Assembly (NCBI GenBank): GCA_965222275.1
Contig: OZ244941.1
Span: forward strand, 1,079,184-1,143,183
Length of the DNA: 64,000 nt
Source: Nitrospirales bacterium
Lineage (GTDB): Bacteria; Nitrospirota; Nitrospiria; Nitrospirales; UBA8639
Reading direction: 5' to 3'
The notes under the pieces: model-generated
Told to the model about the DNA's origin: nothing
What the model saw: the letters and a program-made list of their open reading frames with translations, nothing else
Database searches by the model: none
Shown here: positions 5,642 through 34,388 of the stretch, piece by piece
Layout: every line of letters begins with the position of its first letter
Position numbering within the stretch: position 1 is the first letter of the stretch
Translations under genes and position numbers: made by a program

Positions 5642-6406
5642 TCAGGGTTTGGGGTTCTGGCTGAGATACAGGACCTGGTTGACCCGGAAAGCCTGGGTGT
5701 ACTGGTCGGCCGTGATGTGCTGTGAATGAAAACAGCGCCCATCGAAAATGATCAGACGATTGGGCTTCATGTGGATGAGGAAGAGGAGTTCCCAATAGGC
5801 GTTCCCGTCGTTGATGTAGGCATTCTCCCGGTTGGCGAACAAGGGGTTGAAGATCATGCTGTTCTGAAAATTTTCATAGCCCTCCGCACTGTTGAGAAAT
5901 TCATCGCTGAGTTCCAGCCTGTCGGCCAAATCGCGGATCTCCTGGTCCGGAACGATGGGCACCCGTTCCAATTCCGTGGGCACGTGACGGTACAGGCCGG
6001 TTCCGCCCATGCAGGATTCGGCGGGGTTCAGGTAGACCATGGCGGTCACGTCCTGATCGATATGGGGTTGACGTTGCCCGACGTTGAGGCGGTACGTCTG
6101 GTTGGTGATGCCTTGAAACACGACTGGCTGGGGCTCGAAAAATGGATGCAGCTTCATGCCCCAGAAGTCACTGATCGCATTCACGATCGGCCCGGTCTCG
6201 ACGTTGACCGAAGCCCGAACGCCTGGAAAGTTGCCGACAATCTCGAAGCGATCGGTATACGGAAGCTCCAAGGCCAGTTGAAGGACCTGGTCGGGATGCC
6301 GGTAGAACCCGTCGACCATGACGACCTTGTGGCGGCCCAGGCCTATATGGTCGATGGAAACCTGGCAGTCAGGATTGATCGTGAAGGTTTCAGGAGTGGG
6401 TGGCAC
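5642..6406 (-). CDS. Hypothetical protein, possibly a 2OG-Fe(II)-oxygenase/cupin-like family member (tentative)
   Basis: GTG start with a gggag RBS. The strings VVMVDGFYRHPDQVLQLAL ... NFPGVRA ... HID ... IIFDGRCFHSQH resemble small double-stranded beta-helix oxygenase-like proteins. The family call is from memory only. Confidence 0.55.
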   Translation of the reverse strand: MPPTPETFTINPDCQVSIDHIGLGRHKVVMVDGFYRHPDQVLQLALELPYTDRFEIVGNFPGVRASVNVETGPIVNAISDFWGMKLHPFFEPQPVVFQGITNQTYRLNVGQRQPHIDQDVTAMVYLNPAESCMGGTGLYRHVPTELERVPIVPDQEIRDLADRLELSDEFLNSAEGYENFQNSMIFNPLFANRENAYINDGNAYWELLFLIHMKPNRLIIFDGRCFHSQHITADQYTQAFRVNQVLYLSQNPKP

Positions 6407-6439
6407 GAGCGACTCCCTGTTCCCCGTCGTGGGTTAATG

Positions 6440-6952
6440 CTAATGGTCGCTCATCAGTTCGAGAAACCGCGGCGCCAGGATACGGCTCTGAATCGTCAGC
6501 AATCCACGTTCTCCCAGTTCCCGGTAACTCAGGCTGATTTCGGTGTCCTCGAGACGCCAGGAGTATTCCTGGTTCAGCCCCCGGATCATCGAGCCGGGGC
6601 TGTGTCGAATTTTCCCGAATTCCGATTCCAGCGCCTGCTTGATACGGTTGTGCGTTTCTTCGTTTCGGTATCGGATCATCACACGAGCAAATTGGGCGTC
6701 GATGGTGTAGAGCTTGATGAAATCGACCGGTTCGTTCGCAAACTGCGGCGGGCCTTCCTTATACGCATAAATGTCGACCCGACCGTCGGGCTCGACGAGG
6801 ACGAACTGAGACAATTCCGCCAGCGCACTTCCCCAGGGAATCCCCTGAAAGCCCGGTGGGGGCGCGGGAGTCGTATTCGCGGCGATGAGGAGTTCAGGCA
6901 ACCAGAGGAAGAAGACCAACAGCAGAACGGGGTACGGAACACGACGTGTCAT
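6440..6952 (-). CDS. Hypothetical secreted protein (170 aa)
   Basis: ATG start and an N-terminal signal-like segment (VPYPVLLLVFFLWLPELLIAA). No recognisable domain. Confidence 0.55.
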   Translation of the reverse strand: MTRRVPYPVLLLVFFLWLPELLIAANTTPAPPPGFQGIPWGSALAELSQFVLVEPDGRVDIYAYKEGPPQFANEPVDFIKLYTIDAQFARVMIRYRNEETHNRIKQALESEFGKIRHSPGSMIRGLNQEYSWRLEDTEISLSYRELGERGLLTIQSRILAPRFLELMSDH

Positions 6953-16223: not shown

Positions 16224-16652
16224 TCAGCGCCGCGGGGAATCGACCGGGTATCCGGCTTCGGCCCAGGCGTTCATGCTCCCCATGACGTTATACACGTATT
16301 GGTATCCGAGGCTGGCCAGCGTTTCGGCGGCGATGTTGCTCCGGTGACCGGATTGACAATACACGACAATATGATCGTCGAGCCTTGCACCGATTTCCAC
16401 GTGGCGACGGCCGATCTCCCGAAAATCGATATTGCCATCGGTGCCGGGAATGAAGCCCGTCATATGTTCATCTCCGGTGCGGACGTCAATCAGAAAAAAC
16501 CCTTTCTGCTGGAGGCTCGGGGCTTTTTGAAGTCCCCGGTTCAACTCCTGGACGGTCAGCACGTACGTTTGTTGAGCCGAGACGGAACCGCCCAGCACCA
16601 TCAATGCGAGTGAGAGACCCATGAGGCCACTGAGGATTGTCCGGATCTTCAT
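16224..16652 (-). CDS. Periplasmic rhodanese-domain sulfurtransferase
   Basis: Signal peptide MKIRTILSGLMGLSLALMVLGGSVSAQ, FLIDVRTGDEH..GFIPG, and active-site loop VVYCQSGHRS. Confidence 0.8.
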   Translation of the reverse strand: MKIRTILSGLMGLSLALMVLGGSVSAQQTYVLTVQELNRGLQKAPSLQQKGFFLIDVRTGDEHMTGFIPGTDGNIDFREIGRRHVEIGARLDDHIVVYCQSGHRSNIAAETLASLGYQYVYNVMGSMNAWAEAGYPVDSPRR

Positions 16653-16725
16653 ATATAACCTCCCTGTCGAAATAGTGTGGAGGAGAATCAGGAACGACAT
16701 GCACTTCCTGCGTATAGAATATCCT

Positions 16726-17055
16726 ATGCCCACTTTCGGAATTTGGTCAAGAGCAGGCGTGACTCTCATCGTCGCGATGGGGTTCGTGATGGGGGGATGT
16801 GGCGGCGGCGTTCAGGTCATTCGAGAGAGCCCGGATTCTGGAGTTGTCCGGTATCTGTACAAGGGAGATGATGGACACCTGTACACCTCCAAGCGCGGCG
16901 AGGCGTTTGACAAGATTCGCGAGTTCTGTCGTGGCCCGTACCAGGTGCTTAAAGAAGGAAAAACGAAAGGCCGGCAACGGGTGGTCGAGGGCATGGGAGG
17001 CACCGAAGTCGTGACCGAAGACTGGTGGGGCATCCGGTTTCAATGCACGAAGTAG
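16726..17055 (+). CDS. Small lipoprotein of unknown function
   Basis: MPTFGIWSRAGVTLIVAMGFVMGGC (lipobox). The C-terminal string FCRGPYQVLKEGKTKGRQRVVEG has a decayed paralogous copy at 35213-35272. Confidence 0.6.
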   Translation: MPTFGIWSRAGVTLIVAMGFVMGGCGGGVQVIRESPDSGVVRYLYKGDDGHLYTSKRGEAFDKIREFCRGPYQVLKEGKTKGRQRVVEGMGGTEVVTEDWWGIRFQCTK

Positions 17056-17114
17056 CGGAAGGCGCTATGAGGCCTCTCCCTGCCCCCGAGCAGGGATGGT
17101 ATGGCTGCAAATAT

Positions 17115-20100
17115 CTACCGGGACGACAACATACCGGATCGGTTCGGTTCGAAGCCTTTCGTCCCGGCTTCGACACGCATGCCGCGCGATTTCCTGCCGG
17201 GCATATACCAGGCCCGCTTGACGTAGCAGTTCGGGCCGCGCGCTTTGATTGCCGCACAAAGGGCGGCGGCCGCTTTGCGTATGGAAAAGGCATTCGCGAC
17301 CACGACCCGCGAGAGGCCGCCTTTCTTCGGCGCGGCGATGGCCAGCATGGATTTGTCGTGACGGCGGAAGAGGCCCGACAGATCGCCGGCCAGTTTCGTC
17401 CTGGCCCTGACGGCGTTGGCATGACGCGAAAACGCCCCGAGCTGCACGAAATACCGCATGCTGCCAATCCGCTTTCGAGACTTCTCCGGTACCGAAGAAG
17501 ACGGCGCGGCAACGACCCGGTGCTTGGCTGCGAGCGGAGCGGGCGAGGCCGGTTGTTCCCGGGCCGTGGTCTCCGGAAGCAGGGCCGGCGGCGCAGTGGC
17601 AAACGTGTTGACGGCGGATCGGGACCGTACCGGTGCCGCCTGCGAAGGGGGCATACCGCTGGCCCCGCCAAACCCTAGTTGGACATGGAGGTTGACGCGA
17701 TGTTCCGGTCTGCCGAAGGGGTTCTCCATGCGCTCGCCAGCAAGCTCCACGCGCAGATCTCCTCCACGCGTTCTCGGCCGGTCGAAGACGAGGCTGACGC
17801 GCGACCGCGAGCGGCCTTCGTCCGTGAGATCCAGCCCGGTGAACGGCGTCACCGTGCCTCCCATTGATGGAACCCAAAAGCCGTAGCCCAGTTCCATGGC
17901 AAGGCGGCCGGTCGGATCGGCATTGTTGTTCGCCGCCAAGCCCGCCGTATCCTGCTGCGACCAGAGACGCTCCACCCCGCTCGATGCCGCCCCCCACGTC
18001 GGCGTCAGGGTCAGTGACAGGCCTTGGCCCGCGGTCCCCGGGTCCACCCGGACCGAGCCGCTGACCCCCCATTCCTCATAGTTGGTATCCTCGTGCGCGA
18101 GCAGTCCACGGGCGGCTCCTTCGACCGTCAGGCCCAGCCCCGGGTCTGCGTAGCGCACCCGCCCGCCCAGCTCCACGCCCAAGCCCGTCTCCGCGTCGCC
18201 CCAGTCATGCCGCAGTCCCAATTCCACCGAGGGCGCCAGCATCCGGCCCGCACTCAATTCAAACCCCCGGGAACCTTCCAGGATCAGCCGCAGCCGGTTC
18301 GCGTCCGCCTCCGCCGATTCCAATTTGCCGGCCCCGGTAGTCACCGCGTCCGAGGTCATCCGTGTCAGCATGGCTTCCGACCGCGCCGTCAGTTCGAAGC
18401 CGTCGTTCTCTCCTGCCGGCAGCAGCACGCCTCGACCCCCGAAGGCGCCCATGACCAGATCCGTATCGGTCTCGAGGGCGGCTTGGGCGTTGGCCTGCTC
18501 CAGGGTCAGATCGCCCCACCCGTACCCGAGCAGGCCCCACACGTCCAGCCGCTCGGTCATCTGATAGCGCAAATAGGGATGCACACTCGTCAGCGAGTTC
18601 TCCAACTCGCCCCGGTCCCCGGCTCCGGCCTGGGTCATGGTATACGAGCCGTCGCCCCGGCTGTGCGAGACCGAGAGTCCAGCCAGCCACCGGTCCCATT
18701 CGCCATCCACGCCCAGCGTGCCCGTCAGGACGTCGCCCTCCAAGGACAGGGTGCCATCCACCCCGTCGAACCGCGTGGCCGCCACGCGGCCCCAGGCCGT
18801 CCAGCGCGTGCCGGCCCGCCCGTCGTCGTCCGCGCCCAGGGTCAACCGGAAGGCACTCCCTACCAGGAGATCACGGCCAGTCAGGGTCCGGGAGGCGCCC
18901 GCGCGCCGCTCGGCCCACGGCCAGCCGTTCCCCGGCGCCGGCCCCCACCCGCCAGTGCCCGGCTCCGTGGAGCCCAGTGCCCCGACCCCCAGCGGCAGCC
19001 GGGTCTCTCCCAGCCCCGCCTCTGGCGTGCCCGCTGACCCGGATTCCAGCGACATCCTCCTCCCGCCGACCGTCACATACGAGCCCGGTGACCCCCGCAG
19101 CCGTTCCCCCACCGCATCCACCACGTGCGTCGCCACCGTGCGCCCGAACCGCGCCAACCACGCCTGCGGTAACGGATCGCTATTGACGATCGTGCCCACG
19201 GCCTCGGCGTCGGTCAGCGTCGCGCCCGTGGCGTTGCTGAGCCGCAGCGTGACCGTCTCCTCGCCCTCGTCATGCGCGTCATCCAGCACCGTCACCGCGA
19301 TGGTCTGCTCCGTCTCGCCGGGCGCAAAGGTCACCGTGCCGCTGGCCGCGGTGTAGTCCTCGCCCGCCGTGGCCGTGCCGTCTGCCGTGGCATAGGCCAC
19401 CGTCACCGGCGCGGGACTCGCCGGGCGCAACGTTACCGTGAACCCCAGCGTCGCGTCCGGGCCTTCGTCCACCCGCGCATCCGCGACCGCCAGCGCGTGC
19501 GGCTGCACCGTGAACGTCACGCTCCGGGCCACACTCGCCGTGCCCCCCAGGTCCCGCTCGGGGTAGGGCGAGGCCGTGACCGTGTACGTGCCCGCCGGGA
19601 ACGCTTGCCCACCCTTGTCCCCGAACAGCGCGTAGGGGACCAGATTCTCGGTCCGCGCCGAACTCTGTGTCCCCGTTAACTCCATCTTCACGCTCCAGAT
19701 CGCCGCGTTGGCCGACACCTCCGCCCGGATGTTGAGCCGGGCCGAGGCCTGGGCGGCCAGCACCATGCCCTCGGCCAGTGCAACGATGTCTGTCTGGCTG
19801 CCGCTGTCGAACAGCGTGAAGCCCGTGAGCGGGCTCGGGGGCGCCGCCGGCACCGGCGCGTGGTTGGCGATCGTGCCCACGGCTTCGGCGTCGGTCAGCG
19901 TCGCGCCCGTGGCGTTGCTGAGCCGCAGCGTGACCGTCTCCTCGCCCTCGTCATGCGCGTCATCCAGCACCGTCACCGCGATGGTCTGCTCCGTCTCGCC
20001 GGGCGCAAAGGTCACCGTGCCGCTGGCCGCGGTGTAGTCCTCGCCCGCCGTGGCCGTGCCGTCTGCCGTGGCATACGCCACCGTCACCGGATCAGCACTC

Positions 20101-23100
20101 GCCGGGCGTAGCGTCACCTGGAATTCCAGAACTGCATCGGCGGCTTCTCTCACCCGTGCGTCGGCGATCAAGAGCCGCGGCCGCGCCGGGTCCGTGCCCG
20201 CCACGACGCGGATCGTCCCGCCGTTCAGGGAGAGGCTGTTCGCCACCAGGCCCACTTGACCGGTGTCGCGGTCCGCCGTGGTCACCGTGTACGTGAACAT
20301 CAGCCGGGCCGTGCCCGTGCCGCTGGCATAGGTCGCCTGGCGTGCCGTGCCGCCCACCGTGATCCCGATCGACGGCGTCCCGTTCGTGGTGTCCACCGTG
20401 ACCGGCGTCTCGAACTGCACCGTCACCTCGATTTTCTCGCCCGGCGCGTACGCGCCGCCGCTCTCGGGCGACGACGTGATCGCCACGCTGCTGACCGTTG
20501 GGCCTGGGGCGCGGGCGCCCGATGGCTCAGCGTCCTGGCCCGCCGCCACCGTGAACGCCATGGTCCGCGTCGGCCCGGGTGTGCCGCCCAGGTTCGGCTC
20601 GGGATAGGGGGTGGCGGTGATCCGGTACCCTCCCACCGGGAAGGCCTGGCCGTCCTTGTCCCCGAACAGCGCGTAGGGAACAACGTCCGCGGTGCGTGCC
20701 GCTGTCTGCGCGCCCGTCAACTCCAGGCGCATGCTGCCGATCTGCTCGTCCGGTGCGATCTCGGCCCGGACGTTGAGCCGATCCAAGGACAGGCCTTCAA
20801 GCACTGTGCCATCGGCCAGCGCCCGGACGGCCTCCCCACTCGCGGGGTCGAACAGCGTGAAGCCCGTGACCGGACCACGCGCCGGCAGCGAGATGGTGAA
20901 CGGCTCCGACGCCGCGTTGGGGTTGCCCGCCACGTCCGTCGCGACACCGTCCGGCACCGTGATCGACATCGTACCGCTCACATCAGGATACAGCGTCACG
21001 TGGACCGTGTACTCGGTGCCGTACCCCGTGCCGTCGCTGAAGCTTGCCATGCGCGAAGCGTAGCCGTTGTCAATCACTAACTCCGACATGTCGAATCCCG
21101 ACGTCGGTTCGCTGAACGTTACCGCGATCGGGAACTCGCCCGACACCGGCGCCTCGGCCTCGCTCGTCACCTCCACCGTGGGCGCCAGAAGATCGGCGGC
21201 GATCCGCAGCGGCTGCGATGCCAGGTTGCCCGCGCCATCGCCGTCGCGTGCCGCCTCCGCCGGCACCGCGACCGTGACCGTGCCCTCGAAGCCCGCCGCC
21301 GGCTCGATCTCTGCCGTGTACGTCGCGCCGTCCACGCGCGCGAGCGTCTCGTCCGAGAGCGCGCCATTGCCGACCTCCACGTCCTCCCAGGTGAAGCCCG
21401 TCACTTCCCGGTTGAACGCGAACCTCGCCTCGAAGCGCTCGCGCACCGGACCCTCCGGGCCCGTGATCTCGACCGTCAATGCCTCGCGCGAGCGGGCCGA
21501 CGTCAGGAGCTGGACGCTCAGCGTCGCCGCCTTGTTGGCGATTTCCTTCTTCATCGCTTCGCCTGCCTTGACCGTCGCCATACCGGCGGCCACGCTCAAC
21601 ACCACCTCGGTGGCGCCCGAGTCCGGCGTGATCTCGAGGGTGTGTGCGGCGCCCTCGTAGCTGGTGCGGAGCGAGCTCCCCTTCGTGCCGCCCGTCACCG
21701 TGATGTCGTCCAGCGAGAAGCCGTCCACGGCGATCCCGCAGACCTCGCAACCCGGCTGGTGAAACGCAAACAGCACGTCGAAGGGCCCCCGGTCCACCGA
21801 ATCGTCTTCGTTTCTGTCCCAGGCGTGAACCACGATAGTCAGCGCCACCTCGTCCGCTTCGTCGTCCTCGATCGTGCCTGTCGCTTGCGCCCTGCCGAGG
21901 ACCGCCTGCTCCGCAGAGGTCAGCGTCACCTGGAAGACTTCGTCTTCTGGCCGCCAGTTCCTCTCGAACTCGTACAAGTCGTCCTGCAGAATCGGCACCT
22001 CGATCGTGCCGCTCATCTCCTTCGCCGCGATCATCAGCGTGTCGTTCATCGCCGTGTAGTCCGCCCCGGCGGTCGCGGTCCCGTCCGACGTCTCATACGC
22101 GACGCTCACCTCGAAGCTGCTCGCCGCCGACAGCGACACCGTGAACGACATGGATCCGTCGTCCTCCGAGGCCGTCGCGTCCTCGATGGAAACCTCCGGG
22201 GCCGGACTCAGGTCCGCGGTCACGGTTGCGGTCTCCGACGCCTGGTTCCCGTTGTCGGCGTTCGCGGCGTATTGCGCGACATCGGCGGCAACGCTCACCG
22301 AGACTTGGCCGGACGCGGCGGGCATGATCGTGGCGACGTACTCCCGCGCGTTGGTCGCAACGAAGGCGGTCACCGCGCCGTTCCCGACCGTGATGTCGCT
22401 GTCCACGAAGCCGGTCACGTCGTGGCTGAAGGCGACCCTCGCGTCGAAGGGACCGCCGACCGGCCCATCGGGCAGCACGACCGTCGTCGTCACCCGGACG
22501 CCGTAGACCTTGTGCCCCGCGTCGTCGGCGAAGCCCTTGTGGTCGAGCACCGCGCCGTTGCCGGCCGCGTCCCGGATCCTGCCGCCGTTCGGCCTCATGG
22601 GGTTGGCGGCGACGGACACGCCGTCGGTGTCGAGATCGCCGGCCACGACCACGTAGCGGAACTCCTCGCCGTCGAGGACATCGAAGACTTTCACCGTGCC
22701 GTGATGCGGCGCCTGCCGCGACTGGCCTCCCAGCATGAACTCGATGGAGGGGTTCCCCTCCACCACAACGTCCTCGCTGAACAGCGTCACGAACAAGATC
22801 GGGTCCCCCGCGGTGTAGATGCGGTCCTCGCCGATACCCGCCTCCGACCCCTCGGCGATGGACAGCGCGATGAGACTGGGGACGATGCCGTCCACCTTGT
22901 GTCCGGCCTGGCCGGCCTTCGCGGCGTACTCGCGTTCCGCGTCCGTCTCGGTGCCGCTCTTCTTGATGGTGGCGCCCGAGGGGAGCGTCAGCCCGTTCGC
23001 CGCGATGCCCGCGCCGTCGCTGTCCTCGTCGCCCGCCACCACCACGTACTCGAAGGTGAGCGTGGCCGTGCCGTGGCCGCCGGTATAAGTGGCCTGCCGG

Positions 23101-26100
23101 GTCGCGGCGCCGATCGTCAGGTCCACCGTGGGCGTCCCGGTGACGTCCACCGCCTCGCTGAACGCCACTTCCACCTCGATCACGTCGCTCAGTTTGTAAG
23201 TGTCGTTCTGCCCCGCGGCCGGCGTCGAGGTGAACGACACCTCCGAGACTGCCGGCACGGTGGCCGACGCCTCGGTCGGCGTGGCGGCGATCGGGTCGGA
23301 GGCCGGGCCGTCGCCTGCCGCGCTCTTCGCCCGCACTTCGAAGGTGTATTCGGCGCCGTTGGTCAGGCCGTCCACCGTCGCGGTAGCGCCCGCGCCCGCG
23401 TCCGTCCACCCGCCGAAGGCAGCGTCCCCGTCCGCCTTGTACCGGTAGTCGTAGCCGGTGACCGGCGAGGTGCCGGTCTGGGTGGGCGCGGTCCAGGTCA
23501 AGGTCACCTGGGCGTTGCCGGGGGCCGCCGACGAGATGACGGGTTTGCCGGGAAGCTCGTCGTCGTCGGTGACTGTCTGGAACGCCGACGCCGGCGTCCC
23601 CACGTTGACCGAGACCATGGAGTCGTCGCTGTTCAGGAACCCGGTCACGGCCGTGATCGAGACGGTGACCGTGCTGTCGAGCTCGTCCGCGGCGTCGCCC
23701 GCGGTGGGGAGCGACAGCACGTTCGCGCTCCCGCTCAGCACGTCGGTCCCGCTCAGCGCGGTGGCGGGGGCTTCGTAAGCCGAGGTGGTCGGGTTGTACT
23801 GGAAGCCGAAGCGCTTCGTCCCCTCGGTTGCCGCCTCCAGCATGTCCCCGCCCGTCTCGATCACCGACAGGGTCGCCGTGTAGCTCGTCGTGGCGGCGGG
23901 CAGCGGGTCCACCGTCAGGGTGAAGGCGAGCGCGGTCCCTTCGGTCACCGACGCCCCCGCCGCGATGCCTGCCGTCGCGATGATCGGAGGGGCCGCCGTG
24001 GTCCCGGTCCCGGAGTCGGACCAGGCGCCGTCCCCCTCGGCGTTCCTCGCCCGCACCTGCACGTCGTAGGCGGTGGAAGCGGTCAGCCCCGTGATCGTCG
24101 CGGTCGTCGCCGTGCCATCGTGCGTCCACGCGGCGAACGTGTCGCTACCGGTGCGGTACCGCACGTCGTAGTCCGTGATGTCCGGCCCCGTGTTCTCCGG
24201 CGCCGTCCAGGTCACCGCCAGGGTGGTCGAGGTCGTTCCCGAAAACGTCGGCGCGGCCGGCTTGCCCGGCGCCTCGGCCACGTCGGTCACCGTCACGGTG
24301 ATCGTCTGGTCGGTGGTCCTTTGCCGGTCCCCGGTCCCGCTGGTCGCCCGCACGATCACGATGTAGGCGCCGTCCCGGTCGGCGTCCCGGAGGTCCTCGA
24401 AGTTCGGCGCGCTGGCGAAAACCAGCTCCCGCGTGCTCGGATCGAACGTGAACTTCGACTGGTCGGCCCCCCCTTGGAGCGCGTAGCCCGTCACGTCGTC
24501 GCCGGTGTCGTCGTCGGTTGCCGCCACCGTGAGCACCGCCGTCGTGTTTTCCGCGACGCTCGGGTCGGCGGCGCTCGTGAAGGTCGGCGGGTTGTTCGCC
24601 ACCGGGGTGGCGGTAGTCTCGGCCGTCTCGCCCTTGCCGACGGCGTTGACCGCCCGCACCTGGAAGGTGTACTCGGTTCCGTTGGTGAGGCTGGAGATCT
24701 CCTTCTCGAACACGTTCCCGGCGTCCATCCAATCGGGGCTCCAGGTCGTCTTGCCGTCCGCGCTCACCCGGTACTCGTAGCTCGTGATCGCCGAACTGCC
24801 GGGGTCCGCCGGCGCCAGCCAGGTGAGCGTCACCTTGCCGTCGGCCGGGGCCGCGGTCAGCGCCGGCAGGCCCGGCGCCGAGTCGTCGTCGGTGATGGTC
24901 ACCGTGGCCGTGGCCGGGGCGCCCGCCGAGACCCCCGCCGGCAGGGTGGCGCCGAAGCCAAGCTCCACCGTCTCGTCCTCCTCGGCCGCGGTGTCCTCGG
25001 TGGTGGTGAAGGGGACCGTCTTCGAGATCTCGCCGCTCGCGAAGCTCACGCTCTCCGGCGCCGTGAACTCCGTCGCCTCCGCGCCGGTTCCGGGGGTCGC
25101 GGTGAGCGGAATCTCCACCGAGCGCTCGGGATCGGCGCTGAGCGTCACCGTGACCTCCACGTCCGCGCCCTCCGCCACGCGGTAGTCCGCCGCGCCGAAG
25201 CTCACCGTCACCACCGGGTCGTCGTCGTCGGTGATGGCCACCGTGGCGGCGGGGCGGGCGCCCTCCGTGACCGCGAACGGCAGCGTGCCGAAGCTCAGGG
25301 CCACCGTCTCGTCGTCGTCGTCCTCGGTGTCCCCGGTGGCGCCGAAGGTCAGGACCTTCGACATCTCGCCGGAGGCGAAGGTGACGGTGTCGGCCACCGT
25401 GTAGTCCGCGGCCGAGGCGCCGTCGCCCGGGGTGGCGACGATCGGAATCGTCACGCCGCGTTCGGGGTCGGCGCTCAGGGTCACGGTGACCTCCACGTCC
25501 GCGCCCTCCGTCACCGTGTAGTCCGCCGCGTCGAAGGTCACCGTGACCGTCGGCACCGATTGGTTCGTGACCGCCTGGTCCGTGAAATCCGCCGCCGGGT
25601 TGCCGGCGAGGTCCTGGAGGGCGCTCGCGCCCGACGGCGCGGTGTAGCTGATGGTGAGGGTGTCCTCGCGGGTGGTCGCGCGCGACAGGGTCAGGGTCAC
25701 GACCGTGCCGCTGACCGCGACGCCGCCGATCGTGGGGGTCGTCCCCGTGCCGGTGTACCCCAGCGCGAAGGCGGAGGCCGCCGGCGTGGCGCCGGAATTC
25801 AGCGCTTCATCCCAGGTCAGCACCAACTGATCGCCGCTCACCGTCGCGGTCCGGAGCGCCGGCGCCGCGCCGTCCACCTGCTGGCCGGACTGGCTCGCGA
25901 GCGCGTCGAGCGCCAGGTTCGCGTCCTGGGTGGTGCTGTCCTGCTTCCGGATCGTCCCGCCCGCGAGCTTGAGGGCGTTCGCCGAGACGCCGGCGCCGTC
26001 CCGGTCCACGTCGTCCGCCTGCACGGTGTAGGCGAAGGTCAGGGTGTCCGTGCCCGTGCCGCCGGTGTAGCCCGCCGCGGCGGTGTCCGAGCCGACCGTC

Positions 26101-29100
26101 AGGTCGAGAGTGGGGGTCCCGGTGACGTCCACCGGCTCGCTGAACTTCACCTCCAGCGTGATGGTGTCGGCGAGCTTGTAGGTACTGCTCTGGCCCGCCG
26201 GCGGGCTGGAGGTGAACGAGACGCCCGTCACCGAGGGGATCGTCGTCATGAGGGTCAACGCCTCGGAGGCCGGCCCCGGGCCCACCACGCTTTTCGCGCG
26301 CACCTCGAAGGTGTGGGCGACGCCGTTCGCGAGGCCCGTGACGGTGTAGGTGGTGACGTTGCCGACGTCGGTCCAGTCCGGCGGCCAGGTGGTCCCCCCG
26401 TCGGTGCTCCGGCGGTACTCGTAGCTGGTGATGCTCGAGGTCCCGGCGTCCGGCGCGGTCCAGTTCAGGGTCACCTGGGCGTCGCCCACGGTCCCGGACA
26501 GGACGGGCTTGCCCGGCGGCTCGTCGTTGTCGAGGATGGTGATGGTCAGGTCCGCCGGCGGTTCGACCTGGAAGGACCCGGCCGTGCGCTCGGTCTTGAT
26601 CCGGAAGGTCTCGTCCGGCTCGTCCTCGGTGTCCTCGAGGATCGCGATCGAGAGCGCCTGCTCCCGGACGTTCTGGTTCACGCTCGCGGTGTACCGATTC
26701 CCGTTGGCAGTGGGCGTGAAATCGCCGGTGCGGATGTAGATGATCTCGCTCAGCGCCGTGTAGTCCGCCCCCGCGCTCGCGTTGTCGGATTCCGTCCTGA
26801 TGCTGAAGGTGATGTCCCTGTCCGGGCGCACCGTGCCTGCGGTCGCCGCGGTGTAGGTGATGCCGATGTCGCCCTCGTCCTCGTCCACCGAGGCCCCGGG
26901 GTCGAGCTCGATGGTCACCATGATCCCCGCCACGTCGTTGTCGAGCAGCTCCAGGCTCGCCGACGCCGGCGTTCCGGCGCGGTAGTCCGCACGCGGGGTA
27001 ACGGTCACCTCGAGCCGGCCGTCGGGCTCGTCAATTTCGTCGTCATCGGTGGAGATGACGAGCGCCTTCTCGCTCTCGTCCGCCGCGAACGTCACCTGCC
27101 TCGCCAGGTCCGCGCCGCCCGCGAGGAAGCTCGTCGCCGTGATCTCCAGCCCCACCACCAGGTCCTTGGCCGCGTGGTTCGCGCGGGTGACGGTGAAGGT
27201 CGCTTCCCCGCCCTCGAAGAGCCGCGCCTGCGCGGTGGCCACGGTCACCACCGGCAGGTCGTCGTCGGTGATCGTCCCCGTGGCCCGCGCCCTGGCGAGG
27301 TTCGCGCCCGGACTGTCGCCGAGGGTGAGATCCACGTGGAACGATTCGCTGTCCTCCTGGATCTGGTCGCTCAGCAGCGCGACGCGGATCTCCTTGCTGG
27401 TTTCGCCCACGGCGAAGGTCAGCGCGCCCGAGCCCGCGGTGAAGTCGACGCCCACCGTCGCCGTGTCCGCGACGGTCGCCCAGCTCGCCTCCACCTGCCG
27501 CCCGCTCGCCGGGCTGAGCGTCACCGTGAACACCATCTCCCCGTCGGCCTCCCCGGCCGTCACGTCCGCGATCGAGAGCGCCGGCTCGGCGTCGTCGTCC
27601 ACGATGAGGCCGTCGGCGAACGGCGCCGCGGGCAGGCGGGCGTTCGAGGGCGAGTGGATGGTGAGCCGGAAGCGCTCGGTCGCCTCGTTGACGGTGTCTT
27701 CCACCGTCGCCACCGCAACGTCCTTGGAGGTCTCGCCGGGGTCGAAGGTCAGCGTTCCGGTGACGGCGGTGTAGTCCTCGCCGTCCACGGCGGCTTGAGC
27801 GGCCGTATCCGCCGGGCCGTCGCTCGTCCGGTACTGCACCGTGACGGTCTTCCCGCTCGCGGGGGTCAGGGTCACCTCGAAGGTGGCCGGATCGCCTTCC
27901 GGCGGGGACGCGCCCTGGACCCCGAGCAGGGGCGGGTCGTCGTTGTCGTCGATGAAGCCGGTGGCCTCGGGGTTCGGGAGGGTCGCGTTGACGGGGTTCG
28001 CGAGGCGGGCCAGGAACTGTTCCCGGTCCTCGTCGGAGTCGTCGTCCACTACGGGTACGGCGAACATCCGGCTGGTGGTCCCCGGCGCGAAGGTGAGGGT
28101 CCCGGCGATGTCTTCGAAGTCGATCTCCAGCGCGGCGCTCCAGCTCACGACGCTGTAGTCCACGGTTACCTCCCGGTCGCTCGCGGCGCTCAGGTTCACG
28201 GTGAACTCGACTTCCCCGGCGGTCTCGGAGCCGGTGGCGTTCACGAAGCTCAGGGCAGGCTCGGGGTCGTCGTCCTGGATGGTGATCGTCGCCTCCCGGG
28301 CGCCCACCAGGTAGGCGTTGCTGTCGTTGAGCGTGGCGGTGAGCGTGCCGTCGTCCTCGTCGCGGGTGTCGTCGTCGGTGGGGATCGTGATGAGCACGTG
28401 GTCGTCGTTCGCCTCGATGGAGAACTCCCTGGCGGGGCCGAGGTCCGAAGCCGGGTTCTTGACGTGCTTGCCGGTCGCGGCGATGGCCACGAAGAAGCTG
28501 TCGTGGACGCCCAGGTAGCCGGAGCGGGTCAGCTTGAAGACCGCGTCCGTTCCCTCGGGCACCGTTGCGTCAACGGCCTCGACGGAGACGGTCGGCCGGT
28601 CGTCGTCCTTGATGGTCCCGGTGGCGGTCGGGGGGGTCGGCAGCGTCGCGTGCGTGGCGCTGCTCAGCGTCATCGTGAAGGTCTCGGTGTCGGCTTCGTC
28701 CGCGGTGTCGGCCACCAGGGTGACCACGATCTGCTTGCTGGTCTCGCCGGGGTCGAAGGTGAGGGCGTCGCTCGCGGCGGTGTAGTCGGCGGGGGCCTCC
28801 GCCGTGCCGTCCGCGGTCGCGTAGCTGACGCTCACCGGGTAGTCGCTGGCGGCGCTCAACCCCACGGTGAAGGTGAGGGCGCCGGCGGACTCCTCGGCCT
28901 CCACGTCGCCGATGCTGAGCACCGGCGGGTCGTCGTTGTCGCGGATGGTGTAGGCGGCGGTCGCCCTGGCGCCGTCGATCCCGTACGAGTCATCCGTCGG
29001 GGCCACCAGGGTGGCGGTGACCGCGCCGTCCGGCTCGTCGGTGCTGTCCTCCGTGGTGACCTGCGAGCAGCCCACCGCGGAGGTCGTGGCGACGACTCGC

Positions 29101-32100
29101 TCGTTCGCCAGGATCGTCACCGTGCAGGTCTGGCCGTCGGTGGGCAGGTAGTTGCCGTTGTCCTCCAGCGTGAACCGGACGGTGAGCGGATCCGCTACGA
29201 CGGCGGTCTCGCGGCGCACCACGAACCAGAGCTGCGCGCCCTCGTTCACGACACCGCCCTGGAAGTTCGTGGAGCGCTCGATGCTCACCTTCGCCTGGTC
29301 GTCGTTCGTGATCGTGCCGGTGACGATGTTACTGCCGGAAGCGAGCTGGGCGTTGCCGACGCCAAAGACGCGCAGGGCCACCGTCTCGTCCCGCTCGTGC
29401 ACGTCGTCCACGACCACCGGCACCTCGATGACGAGGTCGGCCGTGGACCCCGCGGTGATCGTGATCGCGGCGGCGGTGGGCGTGTAGTCGTCCGTCGGCG
29501 CCGCCGTGCCCCGCGAGGCGGCGTCCGTCTCGCCGGACTCGATGGTCTCGTACTGGAAGGTGACGTCCTTGCCGCTCGGCGCGCTGAGCGACGCCGTGAA
29601 GCGGAGCGGCCCGGCGTCTTCTGCGACGTCCGCCACGGTCACGGTGAGGGTCGGCTCGGGGTCGTTGTCCACGATGGTGCCGACGGCCTCGGACTTGCCC
29701 AGATCGAGCACGGCGTTCAACGACGGCGACTCCAGCACGATCAGGAGGGTCTCGTCCACCTCGTCGAGGGCGTCGTCCACCAGGGCGAGCGAGATCGCCG
29801 CCTGTGTCTGGCCGGCGCTGATCGTCGCCGTGGTCGTTCCCGTCGGCGCGCTGGTGAAGTCCGCCGCCGACGCCGTGTCGTATTCGATGCGCCAGTCGAA
29901 GGTCGCGTTCTGGGAGTGCGTCCGGCTCATCTCCACCGTGAATTCGAGCGAGCCGGCGTTCTCGGAGGCGCTGGCTGGCTCGATGGAGAGCAACGGGGAG
30001 ACGTCGTCCTCCTGGATGAACACGAAGAACCGGGGCGGGACCGGGAGCAGCGCCGGGCCGGTGGGGGTGTGCAGCTCGACGTAGAACACCTTGCCCGTTT
30101 CGGCCAGGTCGTTGTCGATGATCGGGATGGAAACGGTCTGCTGCGTCTGCGGGGGCGCGAAGGTCAGGGTGCCGCTCGAGGCCGTGTAGTGCGTCCCCGC
30201 CACGGCCTCGTCCGCCCCGGTGGCGTCGGTGTCGCCGGCCGGTTTCCCCGTCGTCCGCCACTGCACCGTGATCTCCTCGCTGGCGGGGTTCAAGAGCGTG
30301 ACCGGGATCACCGCGTCGCCGACGGACTCCAAGACCTGGGCCGGGTTGATGACGAAGTGGGGCTGGGGGTCGTTGTCGGTGACGGTGACCGACGCCTCCC
30401 GGGCGTCCGCCTTGGGGGTGTAGGTCCTCAGCGTGCCGACCTCGTTCACGGCGCCGGCGGGCTGGTCGGCGATGCTCACCTTGAGCGCGCCGTCCGCCTC
30501 GTGGACGTCGTCGTCCACGGTGGGCAGGCTCAGCGTGTAGGTGGTCGAAGCGACGGTGCCCGCAAACTCGATGTATCCGGGGATGGTGATCGTCCGCTGC
30601 CCCGCGGTTGTGTCGAGGTAGTCGCCCGTCTGCTCCACATCGAGGACAATCTTCAGGTCCTGCGAGGCCGCCAGTCCGTAGCCGTCGTGCCTGGTGATCT
30701 CGAAGGCCACGGTCGTTCCTTCTCCGACGGAGGAAACGTCGCCCGCGACTGCGATCGTCACGGTCGGACGACTGTTGTTGATTTCCACCTGGTAGGATTT
30801 CGCCTCCCCGAGCGTGTACCGGGGCTGGAACGGGAAACGCGTCTCGTCGAAGGGCAGCAGTTCGAACGTCCGCCGGACGCCGAGTGGGCCTACCCTCGTC
30901 GGGGTGTAATACCGATTCTCATAGACGGACTCGATCACTCCCACCGGCAGGCCGCCAGTGACGGTGTGGATCCGGCTGTCAGACACCGACCTCACATCCT
31001 GGTCGGGCGGGAGGTACCGTTCCAGGACGGTAGAGATGTAGTCGTAAGAAAGCAGTGTCTCGGAGTAGGCGGAGCGGGCGACCCTCTGAGTGAAGAAATC
31101 TCCTTCGAACATCTCGGTCTTGTCCGTAGTCGCCGTCAGGATGGGAATGTCGTCGTCCCTGACCAACATGCTGGCTGACCTCGCCGTGTCGCCGGCCTGG
31201 TAGTTGGCGCCGGCGGCGATTTCGGCGGTGATCTCGCCGTCGCCCTCGTTGAACTCGTCGTTGATGCTCGGGAGCGAGAACTCGGCGCCGGAGCTCCCGG
31301 CGGCGAAGGTGACCGACCGCGATTCCGTGGTGGTCTGCAGGAAGAGCGAAGTCGGGATCGTGGCGTGCTCGGTGAAGATCTTCGTGTGGTAGGTCAGGCT
31401 CAGGTTGACGGAGAGCGCGACCGCAGTGCCGCCGGTGCGGGTCAGGTCGAAGACGGCGGGGCTGCCCTCGTCCACCTGCTCGGCGCGCGCGGCGATGGTG
31501 ACGGTCTCGTTGTCGTTGTCGAGGATGGCGACGGTGGTGGCGGCGGGCGTGCCCTCCGAGACCTTCTCCGGGAGGGTCGCGCCGAAAGTGAGCCGGACCG
31601 TCTCGCCGTCGTCGTCCTCGGTGTCGTCGGTGGCGGTGAAGGTGACCGTCTTCGAGGTCTCGTTGGCGGCGAAGGTCACGTTCGTGGGCACCGTCGAGTC
31701 GCCGCTGGCGGCGCCGTCCTGCCCCTCGGCCTCCAGCGGAATCGTCACTTCGCGGCCGGGCGCGATGTCGAGCTGCACGGTCACCTCTGCCGTACCGCCC
31801 TCGGAGACCTCGTAGGTTGCCGCGTCGAAGGAGACGGTCACCTCGAAGAGGTCGTCGTCCTCGATGGTCCCGGTCGCCGTGGCCCGCGCGATCTGCGCGT
31901 TCGCCGGCGAGGTGAGGGTGACGGTGAAGGTCTCGTCCGGCTCGATGTCCGTGTCGTCCCGGATCGTCACCGTGAAGGTCGCGCTCGTCTGCCCGGCGGG
32001 GATCGTCAGCGTGCTGCTGACGGCGGTGTAGTCCTCGCCGGCGGTGGCGGTCCCGTTCGAGGTCGCGTAGTGCACCTCCGCGTCGAAGTCCGTCGAGCCG

Positions 32101-33992: not shown

Positions 33993-34388
33993 CTTGTGAT
34001 GCTCCCCAGATTCTTGCCTCCGAGTCCGCCGTTCCCATGCCCAGATTCGCACTACACGGGAGCATGGCAGTTTTCCCTGTGCCATGTATACGTAACTATT
34101 GGATATTATTGTAATATGCACACGTGTCACCATCAAGCGCTATGTGATGATGGAGGACGCTTCGAAAGAATCAGAAACAGCGTCAGACCCAGGTCGGGCG
34201 TCGGACCTTACGCTCCGGTTGGTCATTCATCCGTGACGGCCTTTCCCTGGCCGCCTGTGCAACGTCCCGTAGCCGTTGCTGCAACACAAAAGCCGGAGTC
34301 CCTTCCTGATTTCGACCCGGACCATCCTCAGGCCAAAGGGATCATTCTCTCATTTCACCGCTGGCCTGATGAAGGGGAACAAACAGTC

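Follow-up and report, generated by a model that had tools for sequence, protein, structure and literature searches.

A giant adhesin of a Nitrospirales bacterium carries a conserved SPOR domain behind a predicted autotransporter-like barrel

The DNA considered here (the window) is a stretch of 64,000 nucleotides of contig OZ244941.1 from a Nitrospirales bacterium, and all positions given below are those of this whole stretch. Its minus strand carries the gene of a giant adhesin of about 5,600 residues (17115-33992), lying within an open reading frame (ORF) that spans 17115-34136 and counts 5673 codons from its first TTG; the MIPRQ at 33992 is the probable start of the gene. The Arg-rich leader at 33780-33992 is taken to be a Sec signal peptide. 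Pfam matches across the adhesin are 12 Calx-beta, four fn3 and four Big_12 domains, together with Cadherin, SWM_repeat and, at the C-terminal end, SPOR. We show here that this SPOR-tailed adhesin, in which the chain continues from an outer-membrane barrel into a peptidoglycan-binding type of domain, is a real and conserved feature that extends a known principle.

The codon of the last Phe of the barrel occupies 17670-17672, and in the translation of 17115-19700 it is followed in frame by 184 further residues. A preliminary description of this DNA, made from the letters alone, had the ORF running on for about 185 residues past ...RVNLHVQLGF, which is borne out, and had placed a SPOR domain there; the range it gave (17205-17670) covers linker and SPOR domain, although the strand was left unstated. 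It had also allowed for a fusion created by a missed stop in the 17.1-17.7 kb region. Contigs from three public sequencing runs (two samples, two studies) cross the junction with no substitutions, indels or junctions. Single contigs from these runs start at 16900, 17013 or 17026 and reach 18021 or 18210, and the stretch 17026-18021 is identical in the contigs of all three. The best-matching runs may represent the window's own source sample, and the third run comes from a different study.

The order of barrel, linker and SPOR domain in a single frame recurs in 20 proteins from independent assemblies, the window's included, and at least 19 homologues of the window protein keep the SPOR tail, with an identity of 45-70% within the SPOR domain. 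A related-locus search with an alignment of three tail sequences led to five loci. Nitrospirales bacterium MEX2-MAG12 (L001) shows the same barrel end, a linker of about 120 residues and the SPOR domain in one frame. The linker/SPOR region of L002 (OZ253473.1, a Nitrospirales chromosome; 6001-6836) carries two frameshifts relative to P0079, a near-identical, in-frame counterpart of the L002 gene from another assembly. As P0079 has no such shift, the one in L002 goes back to an indel error in sequencing or to local pseudogene formation.

The out-of-frame SPOR part of L002, as well as 13 family members with shortened tails and no SPOR domain, might be taken to mean that the fusion arose in assembly or that the gene is decaying, a stop or frameshift ahead of a once-separate SPOR gene having been overlooked or having disappeared from this assembly, with a tail that is either absent from the protein or without function. 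We give practically no credence to this explanation. Besides the in-frame P0079, it is contradicted by the identity of contigs from three runs and two studies across the junction, and by the 20 in-frame fusions from independent assemblies with their conserved SPOR domain. Moreover, the tail lacks both a signal peptide and a membrane anchor, which rules out that it was once a SPOR protein exported in its own right, and behind the tail-less barrels in L003-L005 the next 6 kb contain no separate SPOR gene. Taken together, these observations effectively exclude a missed stop or frameshift. An independent SPOR protein starting at the Met at 17457-17459 was considered as a candidate and rejected; it would have neither signal peptide nor anchor, and the homologues show Arg, His, Lys, Tyr, Gln or Trp at this position.

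The identity of the domain is well supported. Searched with the PF05036 hidden Markov model (HMM), as the preliminary description had proposed, the tail alone is matched over residues 75-155 with 35.2 bits (E 1.6e-8) at a gathering score of 21, and in longer sequence contexts the match reaches 31.5, 32.0 and 30.6 bits. FtsN- and RlpA-type models of NCBIfam match the same stretch below their thresholds. AlphaFold2, run with an alignment of 44 sequences, predicts a beta-alpha-beta-beta-alpha-beta fold with a predicted local distance difference test (pLDDT) score of 85-93, preceded by a disordered linker (pLDDT about 30) and followed by a disordered end; DSSP assigned the elements of this model to E574-583, H586-599, E612-615, E623-627, H634-645 and E652-657. 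Across the 20 homologues the linker varies between 29 and 181 residues, shares 13-41% identity and is always rich in Ala, Pro, Ser, Thr and Arg. The comparison with the 45-70% identity of the SPOR domain points to a constrained domain on a flexible spacer.

The columns conserved in at least 90% of the 20 homologues include Y.VQ.G.F of strand beta-1, the Arg of GLSRV and two Cys ten residues apart; the beta-1 Gln (VQLGAF) and the GLSRV Arg are invariant or at least 90% conserved. This Gln corresponds to FtsN Q251, RlpA Q270 and DamX Q351, the residue that in SPOR-glycan structures contacts the lactyl carboxylate of N-acetylmuramic acid and is needed for septal localisation (PMC6895207). The GLSRV Arg is probably the equivalent of RlpA R309, and the position three residues past the Gln, the site of FtsN S254, is Ala as in RlpA (PMC6895207). 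The two invariant Cys residues may form a disulfide, which would point to an oxidising, extracytoplasmic location of the domain. Judged from these residues, the tail would bind denuded glycan strands of peptidoglycan. The basic tail behind the SPOR domain (17118-17219) contains the motif P.K.SRG.(H/R)V, which is common to the window protein, P0003, P0004, P0079 and P0123.

Table 1. Layout of the giant adhesin gene in the window.
Feature	Position	Strand	Basis
Whole giant-adhesin gene	17115-33992	minus	ORF reading; open frame reaches TTG at 34136
N-terminal leader, Arg-rich, hydrophobic segment then AQA (LAAFVLAGAALLGVSTPAQA)	33780-33992	minus	Direct sequence reading
Passenger, string of Calx-beta, FN3, Big_12 and cadherin modules	19176-33779	minus	Pfam
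Alpha-helix AWLARFGRTVATHVVDAVGERL between passenger and barrel	19101-19175	minus	AlphaFold2 residues 2-26, pLDDT 85-89; nearly invariant in family
Variable, predicted-disordered insert from helix to barrel	18888-19043	minus	pLDDT <50, residues 46-97
Autotransporter-like outer-membrane beta-barrel, about 18 predicted strands, end ...HRVNLHVQLGF	17670-18803	minus	AlphaFold2, PDB fold search, TIGR01414
Flexible linker, 70 residues, Ala/Pro/Ser/Arg-rich	17460-17669	minus	AlphaFold2 pLDDT 27-41
SPOR domain MRYFVQLGAFS...GPNCYV (...LCAAIKARGPNCYV) (MRYFVQLGAFSRHANAVRARTKL...RVVVANAFSIRKAAAALCAAIKARGPNCYV)	17220-17459	minus	PF05036, AlphaFold2, conserved residues
Basic post-SPOR tail KRAWYMPGRKSRGMRVE..., 34 residues	17118-17219	minus	Predicted disordered (AlphaFold2)
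Stop codon of giant gene	17115-17117	minus	Translation

The barrel had been described at first as that of a type Va autotransporter. This holds for the best fold-level matches, but not for the PF03797 model, the TIGR01414 cut-off or the number of strands. PF03797 gave no match to the window protein, and TIGR01414 matched its barrel with 14.7 bits (E 0.012) at a cut-off of 16; among 44 family members, PF03797 was matched by one (3.8e-8) and the generic OMP_b-brl by 19. A sequence profile of the family searched against the PDB found Calx-beta structures only and no solved autotransporter. The fold search of the PDB with two AlphaFold2 models gave autotransporter beta-domains as the best matches of both, with BrkA (3qq2) at the top (E 2.4e-6, about 20% identity, TM-score 0.60 when target-normalised and 0.40 when query-normalised), followed by NalP, EstA and EspP. 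Overall, these autotransporter matches have target-normalised TM-scores of 0.46-0.60 at 15-20% identity and extend over some 250 of the roughly 400 residues. None of the solved barrels gives a global match, the top query-normalised TM-score being 0.46, to 22-strand TonB-dependent transporters.

Both models contain 18 long strands, for the most part with a pLDDT of 76-95, and one further strand, FRLTLG, which is short and conserved; strand count and barrel closure are predictions of these models. The hydrophobic alternation of the predicted strands is compatible with amphipathic strands and is not decisive. A leader and a passenger are present. A conserved helix precedes strand 1 by about 100 residues, and a variable, disordered insert of 50 residues separates it from the barrel. 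The classical type Va beta-domain has 12 strands and an aromatic residue at the C-terminus; here 18 strands are predicted in two models, and 184 residues follow the Phe. The fold search and the near-threshold HMM scores argue for homology to autotransporter barrels, and we file the predicted barrel as autotransporter-like (type-V-like) and not as canonical type Va. Going by the models, the barrel family may represent a larger-pore autotransporter-like class, and the apparently oversized barrel may prove more novel than the SPOR tail.

The preliminary description had pointed to strand parity as a way of placing the tail. The predicted number of about 18 strands is even, and an even number would return the C-terminus to the periplasm; barrel closure and the side of the C-terminus rest on the model. 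If the C-terminus lay outside instead, the SPOR-like domain would be exposed on the cell surface and might bind another glycan, such as a host or matrix polysaccharide. We hold this to be very unlikely, even if the short extra strand FRLTLG beside the roughly 18 long ones makes the parity uncertain and some 100 residues between helix and strand 1 are of unplaced location. To our knowledge, all bacterial outer-membrane barrels are even-stranded and have both termini in the periplasm. Autotransporter beta-domains, which gave the best fold matches, have a periplasmic C-terminus, and all SPOR domains characterised so far bind denuded peptidoglycan (PMC6895207; bioRxiv 10.1101/2022.07.01.498525).

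The distribution of the tail was followed through the barrel family. A search with barrel and tail returned more than 1,100 family members, and an exhaustive HMMER scan 7,963 members at E <= 0.001 (representatives of 50%-identity clusters). Most of them align to the barrel alone (73% of the query) and a subset through the SPOR domain; the named genome records among the matches are Nitrospirales metagenome-assembled genomes (MAGs). The passengers of the family are very diverse and contain Calx-beta, fn3, cadherin, He_PIG, LRR and Big modules. A barrel HMM and a SPOR HMM were scanned on 247 retrieved proteins, 203 of which have a complete barrel end. Most of the latter (169 of 203) are tail-less and stop 0-3 residues past the barrel, typically with ...LQVTWGF or ...WNF; 20, the window protein included, have a SPOR-containing tail of more than 100 residues, and 13 have tails of 10-105 residues with no SPOR domain. 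The SPOR-tailed proteins come from different ENA samples, measure 498-4,260 residues and carry fn3, He_PIG, cadherin, Calx-beta and Big_12 passengers. Nearly all of them retain the Phe that closes the last strand, with Gly, Asp, Pro or Asn behind it, so that at the sequence level the predicted beta-signal is retained as an internal motif. The SPOR-less, short-tailed members look like decay intermediates, or in some cases gene-call truncations. A last strand of the tailed type (...LQLQF.FG) followed by a linker of 20-105 residues and no SPOR domain was seen in P0006, P0009, P0015, P0025, P0030, P0032, P0035, P0113, P0119, P0133 and P0157.

In a FastTree phylogeny of 205 barrel domains with midpoint rooting, the SPOR-tailed proteins are arranged as a comb at the base, to either side of the root, and a tail-less clade of 127 members is nested among them; the SPOR state changes 11 times by parsimony. 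Barrel and SPOR domain have diverged together: their pairwise distances are correlated (Mantel r 0.48, reached in 0 of 5000 permutations) and their mean divergence is similar (0.44 against 0.47). The simplest reading of these sequence data would be that the tail is old in the family, descended together with the barrel and disappeared on repeated occasions. The root of the tree is uncertain, however, long branches lead to several tailed sequences, and at least P0010 appears to be a mosaic. P0010 has last strands, linker and SPOR domain of the P0127 type, and its barrel groups inside the large tail-less clade (compared with P0059, P0127, P0019 and P0128). These mixed affinities suggest recombination within barrel genes. 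The architecture is thus not a one-off but recurrent, and probably ancestral, in a large barrel family of Nitrospirales MAGs.

A more far-reaching idea is that the SPOR-tailed proteins are the ancestral form of a distinct type-V-like class, seen so far in Nitrospirales MAGs. Its single-chain barrel, with about 18 strands, would exceed every known autotransporter barrel in size, a locator for septal peptidoglycan would be built in, and the tail-less paralogues would have derived from this form by loss. We put this forward tentatively, as a proposal whose chances are low though not negligible. If it were true, division sites would be the places where giant adhesins are inserted or kept, with a mechanical link to the sacculus.

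The tail could also serve mainly the biogenesis or stability of the protein, as a shield against proteases or by holding the C-terminus while the beta-barrel assembly machinery (BAM) assembles the barrel and the passenger is threaded, with peptidoglycan binding secondary or absent. According to a recent preprint, Veillonella trimeric autotransporters without their post-barrel periplasmic domain are markedly degraded, although they can do without it for both secretion and trimer formation (bioRxiv 10.64898/2026.01.22.700529). Several tailed relatives do have very long passengers (2,000-4,260 residues in total). Tail-less members, however, are long as well (P0216 with 5,491 and P0219 with 4,888 residues), so that the presence of the tail does not simply track passenger length. 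Moreover, the invariant residues are the glycan-binding Gln and the sheet Arg of the SPOR domain, which argues that ligand binding has been maintained. A role of this kind as the main function is therefore unlikely in our judgement.

Next to the adhesin gene, a small convergent ORF on the plus strand (16621-17055) with a lipoprotein-like start (VAMGFVMGGCGGG) comes to an end at a distance of 60 bp from the adhesin's stop codon, and no link between this ORF and the adhesin was found. A scan for terminators and promoters around the end of the giant gene gave a signal at chance level.

We consider it probable that the protein is a single-chain adhesin whose SPOR tail tethers or locates the barrel at denuded peptidoglycan in the periplasm, and the periplasmic, peptidoglycan-binding role suggested in the preliminary description appears to be the best reading. 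After export by way of the Sec leader, the passenger of about 5,000 residues, with its Calx-beta, FN3 and Ig-like modules, would be displayed on the cell surface as a calcium-binding, bead-string adhesin. The enlarged autotransporter-like barrel, with the conserved helix ahead of it, would sit in the outer membrane; given an even strand count, its last strand would end on the periplasmic side and leave linker and SPOR domain suspended in the periplasm. In this compartment the SPOR domain, to which a disulfide probably lends stability, would attach to glycan strands without stem peptides. It might act as a load-bearing anchor against the pulling forces on the passenger, or might place or retain the protein where amidases would leave denuded glycans, at the septum and the new pole, or do both. 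BAM may assemble the barrel through the retained, now internal ...Q-L-G-F beta-signal.

Several points weigh against this reading. The SPOR profile searched against the PDB gave weak matches (CwlC 1x60, E 0.003; FtsN 1uta, E 0.7). All homologues derive from metagenome assemblies, and the evidence as a whole consists of uncultured organisms and predictions; closure, strand count and the side of the C-terminus rest on models. Finally, the tail is dispensable for barrel function, since 169 of the 203 proteins have none and a further 13 have it shortened.

A tethering or locating role of the tail would have consequences beyond this protein. The SPOR domain recognises spatially restricted peptidoglycan, the denuded glycans of the septum, and the adhesins are thus predicted to be found at division sites. 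The family moreover offers natural pairs of tailed and tail-less proteins, which can be used to ask what a post-barrel domain contributes to assembly and stability. If a barrel of more than 12 strands is confirmed, this would matter for the question of how passengers of great length get through the outer membrane.

A full-text literature search found neither an autotransporter-SPOR fusion nor a monomeric autotransporter with a post-barrel peptidoglycan-binding domain, which agrees with the initial statement that no example had been described, and is no proof for all literature and domain databases. The individual elements are known from other systems. RlpA, an outer-membrane lipoprotein, and the inner-membrane proteins FtsN, DamX and DedD likewise carry a SPOR domain with the beta-1 Gln on a flexible tether; their anchor, however, is a lipid or a transmembrane helix, they act in cell division and not in adhesion, and RlpA has an additional lytic transglycosylase (DPBB) domain. 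OmpA follows the same logic as the adhesin, with an outer-membrane barrel, a Pro/Ala-rich hinge, a C-terminal periplasmic peptidoglycan-binding domain and an internal beta-signal. In contrast to the adhesin, its barrel has eight strands and no passenger, and OmpA_C binds peptide stems (diaminopimelic acid) and not denuded glycans.

The beta-domains of type Va autotransporters (BrkA 3qq2, NalP 1uyn, EspP 2qom, EstA 3kvn) share with the adhesin the N-terminal passenger and have a helix ahead of the barrel, which in the adhesin is placed about 100 residues before strand 1, and their terminal aromatic residue is also found in most members of the window's barrel family. They have 12 strands in about 250-280 residues, whereas about 18 strands in about 380 residues are predicted here, the HMM thresholds are not reached and the chain continues past the barrel. 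Inverse autotransporters (type Ve: intimin, invasin, YeeJ) resemble the adhesin in having their own periplasmic peptidoglycan-binding module and an internal last strand, but their LysM domain is N-terminal to the barrel and their passenger C-terminal, and LysM differs from SPOR in fold and ligand preference.

Close counterparts exist among trimeric autotransporters. In about 12% of these the chain runs on behind the barrel and enters the periplasm, and nearly all such cases lie outside Proteobacteria (Dorison et al., bioRxiv 10.64898/2026.01.22.700529). Some of the extensions consist of nothing but a coiled coil, and in others the coiled coil leads into SLH (Negativicutes) or OmpA (Streptobacillus) (bioRxiv 10.64898/2026.01.22.700529); the adhesin has a post-barrel extension as well, of 184 residues with a SPOR domain. 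In both cases the protein is a surface adhesin, the peptidoglycan-binding domain stands behind the barrel at the C-terminal end and the beta-signal is internal (type Vc SLH/OmpA tails: Dorison et al.; Bechon et al. 2020, PMC7549365). Type Vc proteins are, however, trimers with a YadA-type anchor of three times four strands and a coiled coil before SLH or OmpA, whereas the adhesin is a single chain with a large predicted barrel, a disordered Ala/Pro-rich linker and SPOR; the Pfam scan of the window protein found no YadA anchor, and the linker is predicted to be disordered, with no coiled coil. The type Vc tails occur in Negativicutes, Fusobacteriia, Synergistia and cyanobacteria, and the adhesin in Nitrospirota. 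The words 'SPOR' and 'Nitrospir' are absent from the text of the preprint, whose survey of periplasmic domains covers trimeric autotransporters only (bioRxiv 10.64898/2026.01.22.700529). SLH tails keep the Veillonella adhesins out of the septum (bioRxiv 10.64898/2026.01.22.700529), whereas SPOR domains classically target proteins to it, and the septal placement predicted here would thus be the opposite of this exclusion.

Since OmpA as well as inverse and trimeric autotransporters have an internal last strand, such a strand is no obstacle to BAM, and the recognition of an internal beta-signal, which the preliminary description had raised as an open question, has precedents; the Phe is, moreover, kept in the tailed members. 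In Acinetobacter, the barrel of the very long adhesin AtaA is likewise coupled to peptidoglycan, but in trans, by the separate periplasmic protein TpgA with its BamE-like and OmpA domains. Coupling of type V proteins to peptidoglycan is thus known through LysM, through SLH or OmpA tails and through the TpgA partner, and a SPOR domain on a single-chain barrel in a phylum that had not been surveyed extends this principle.

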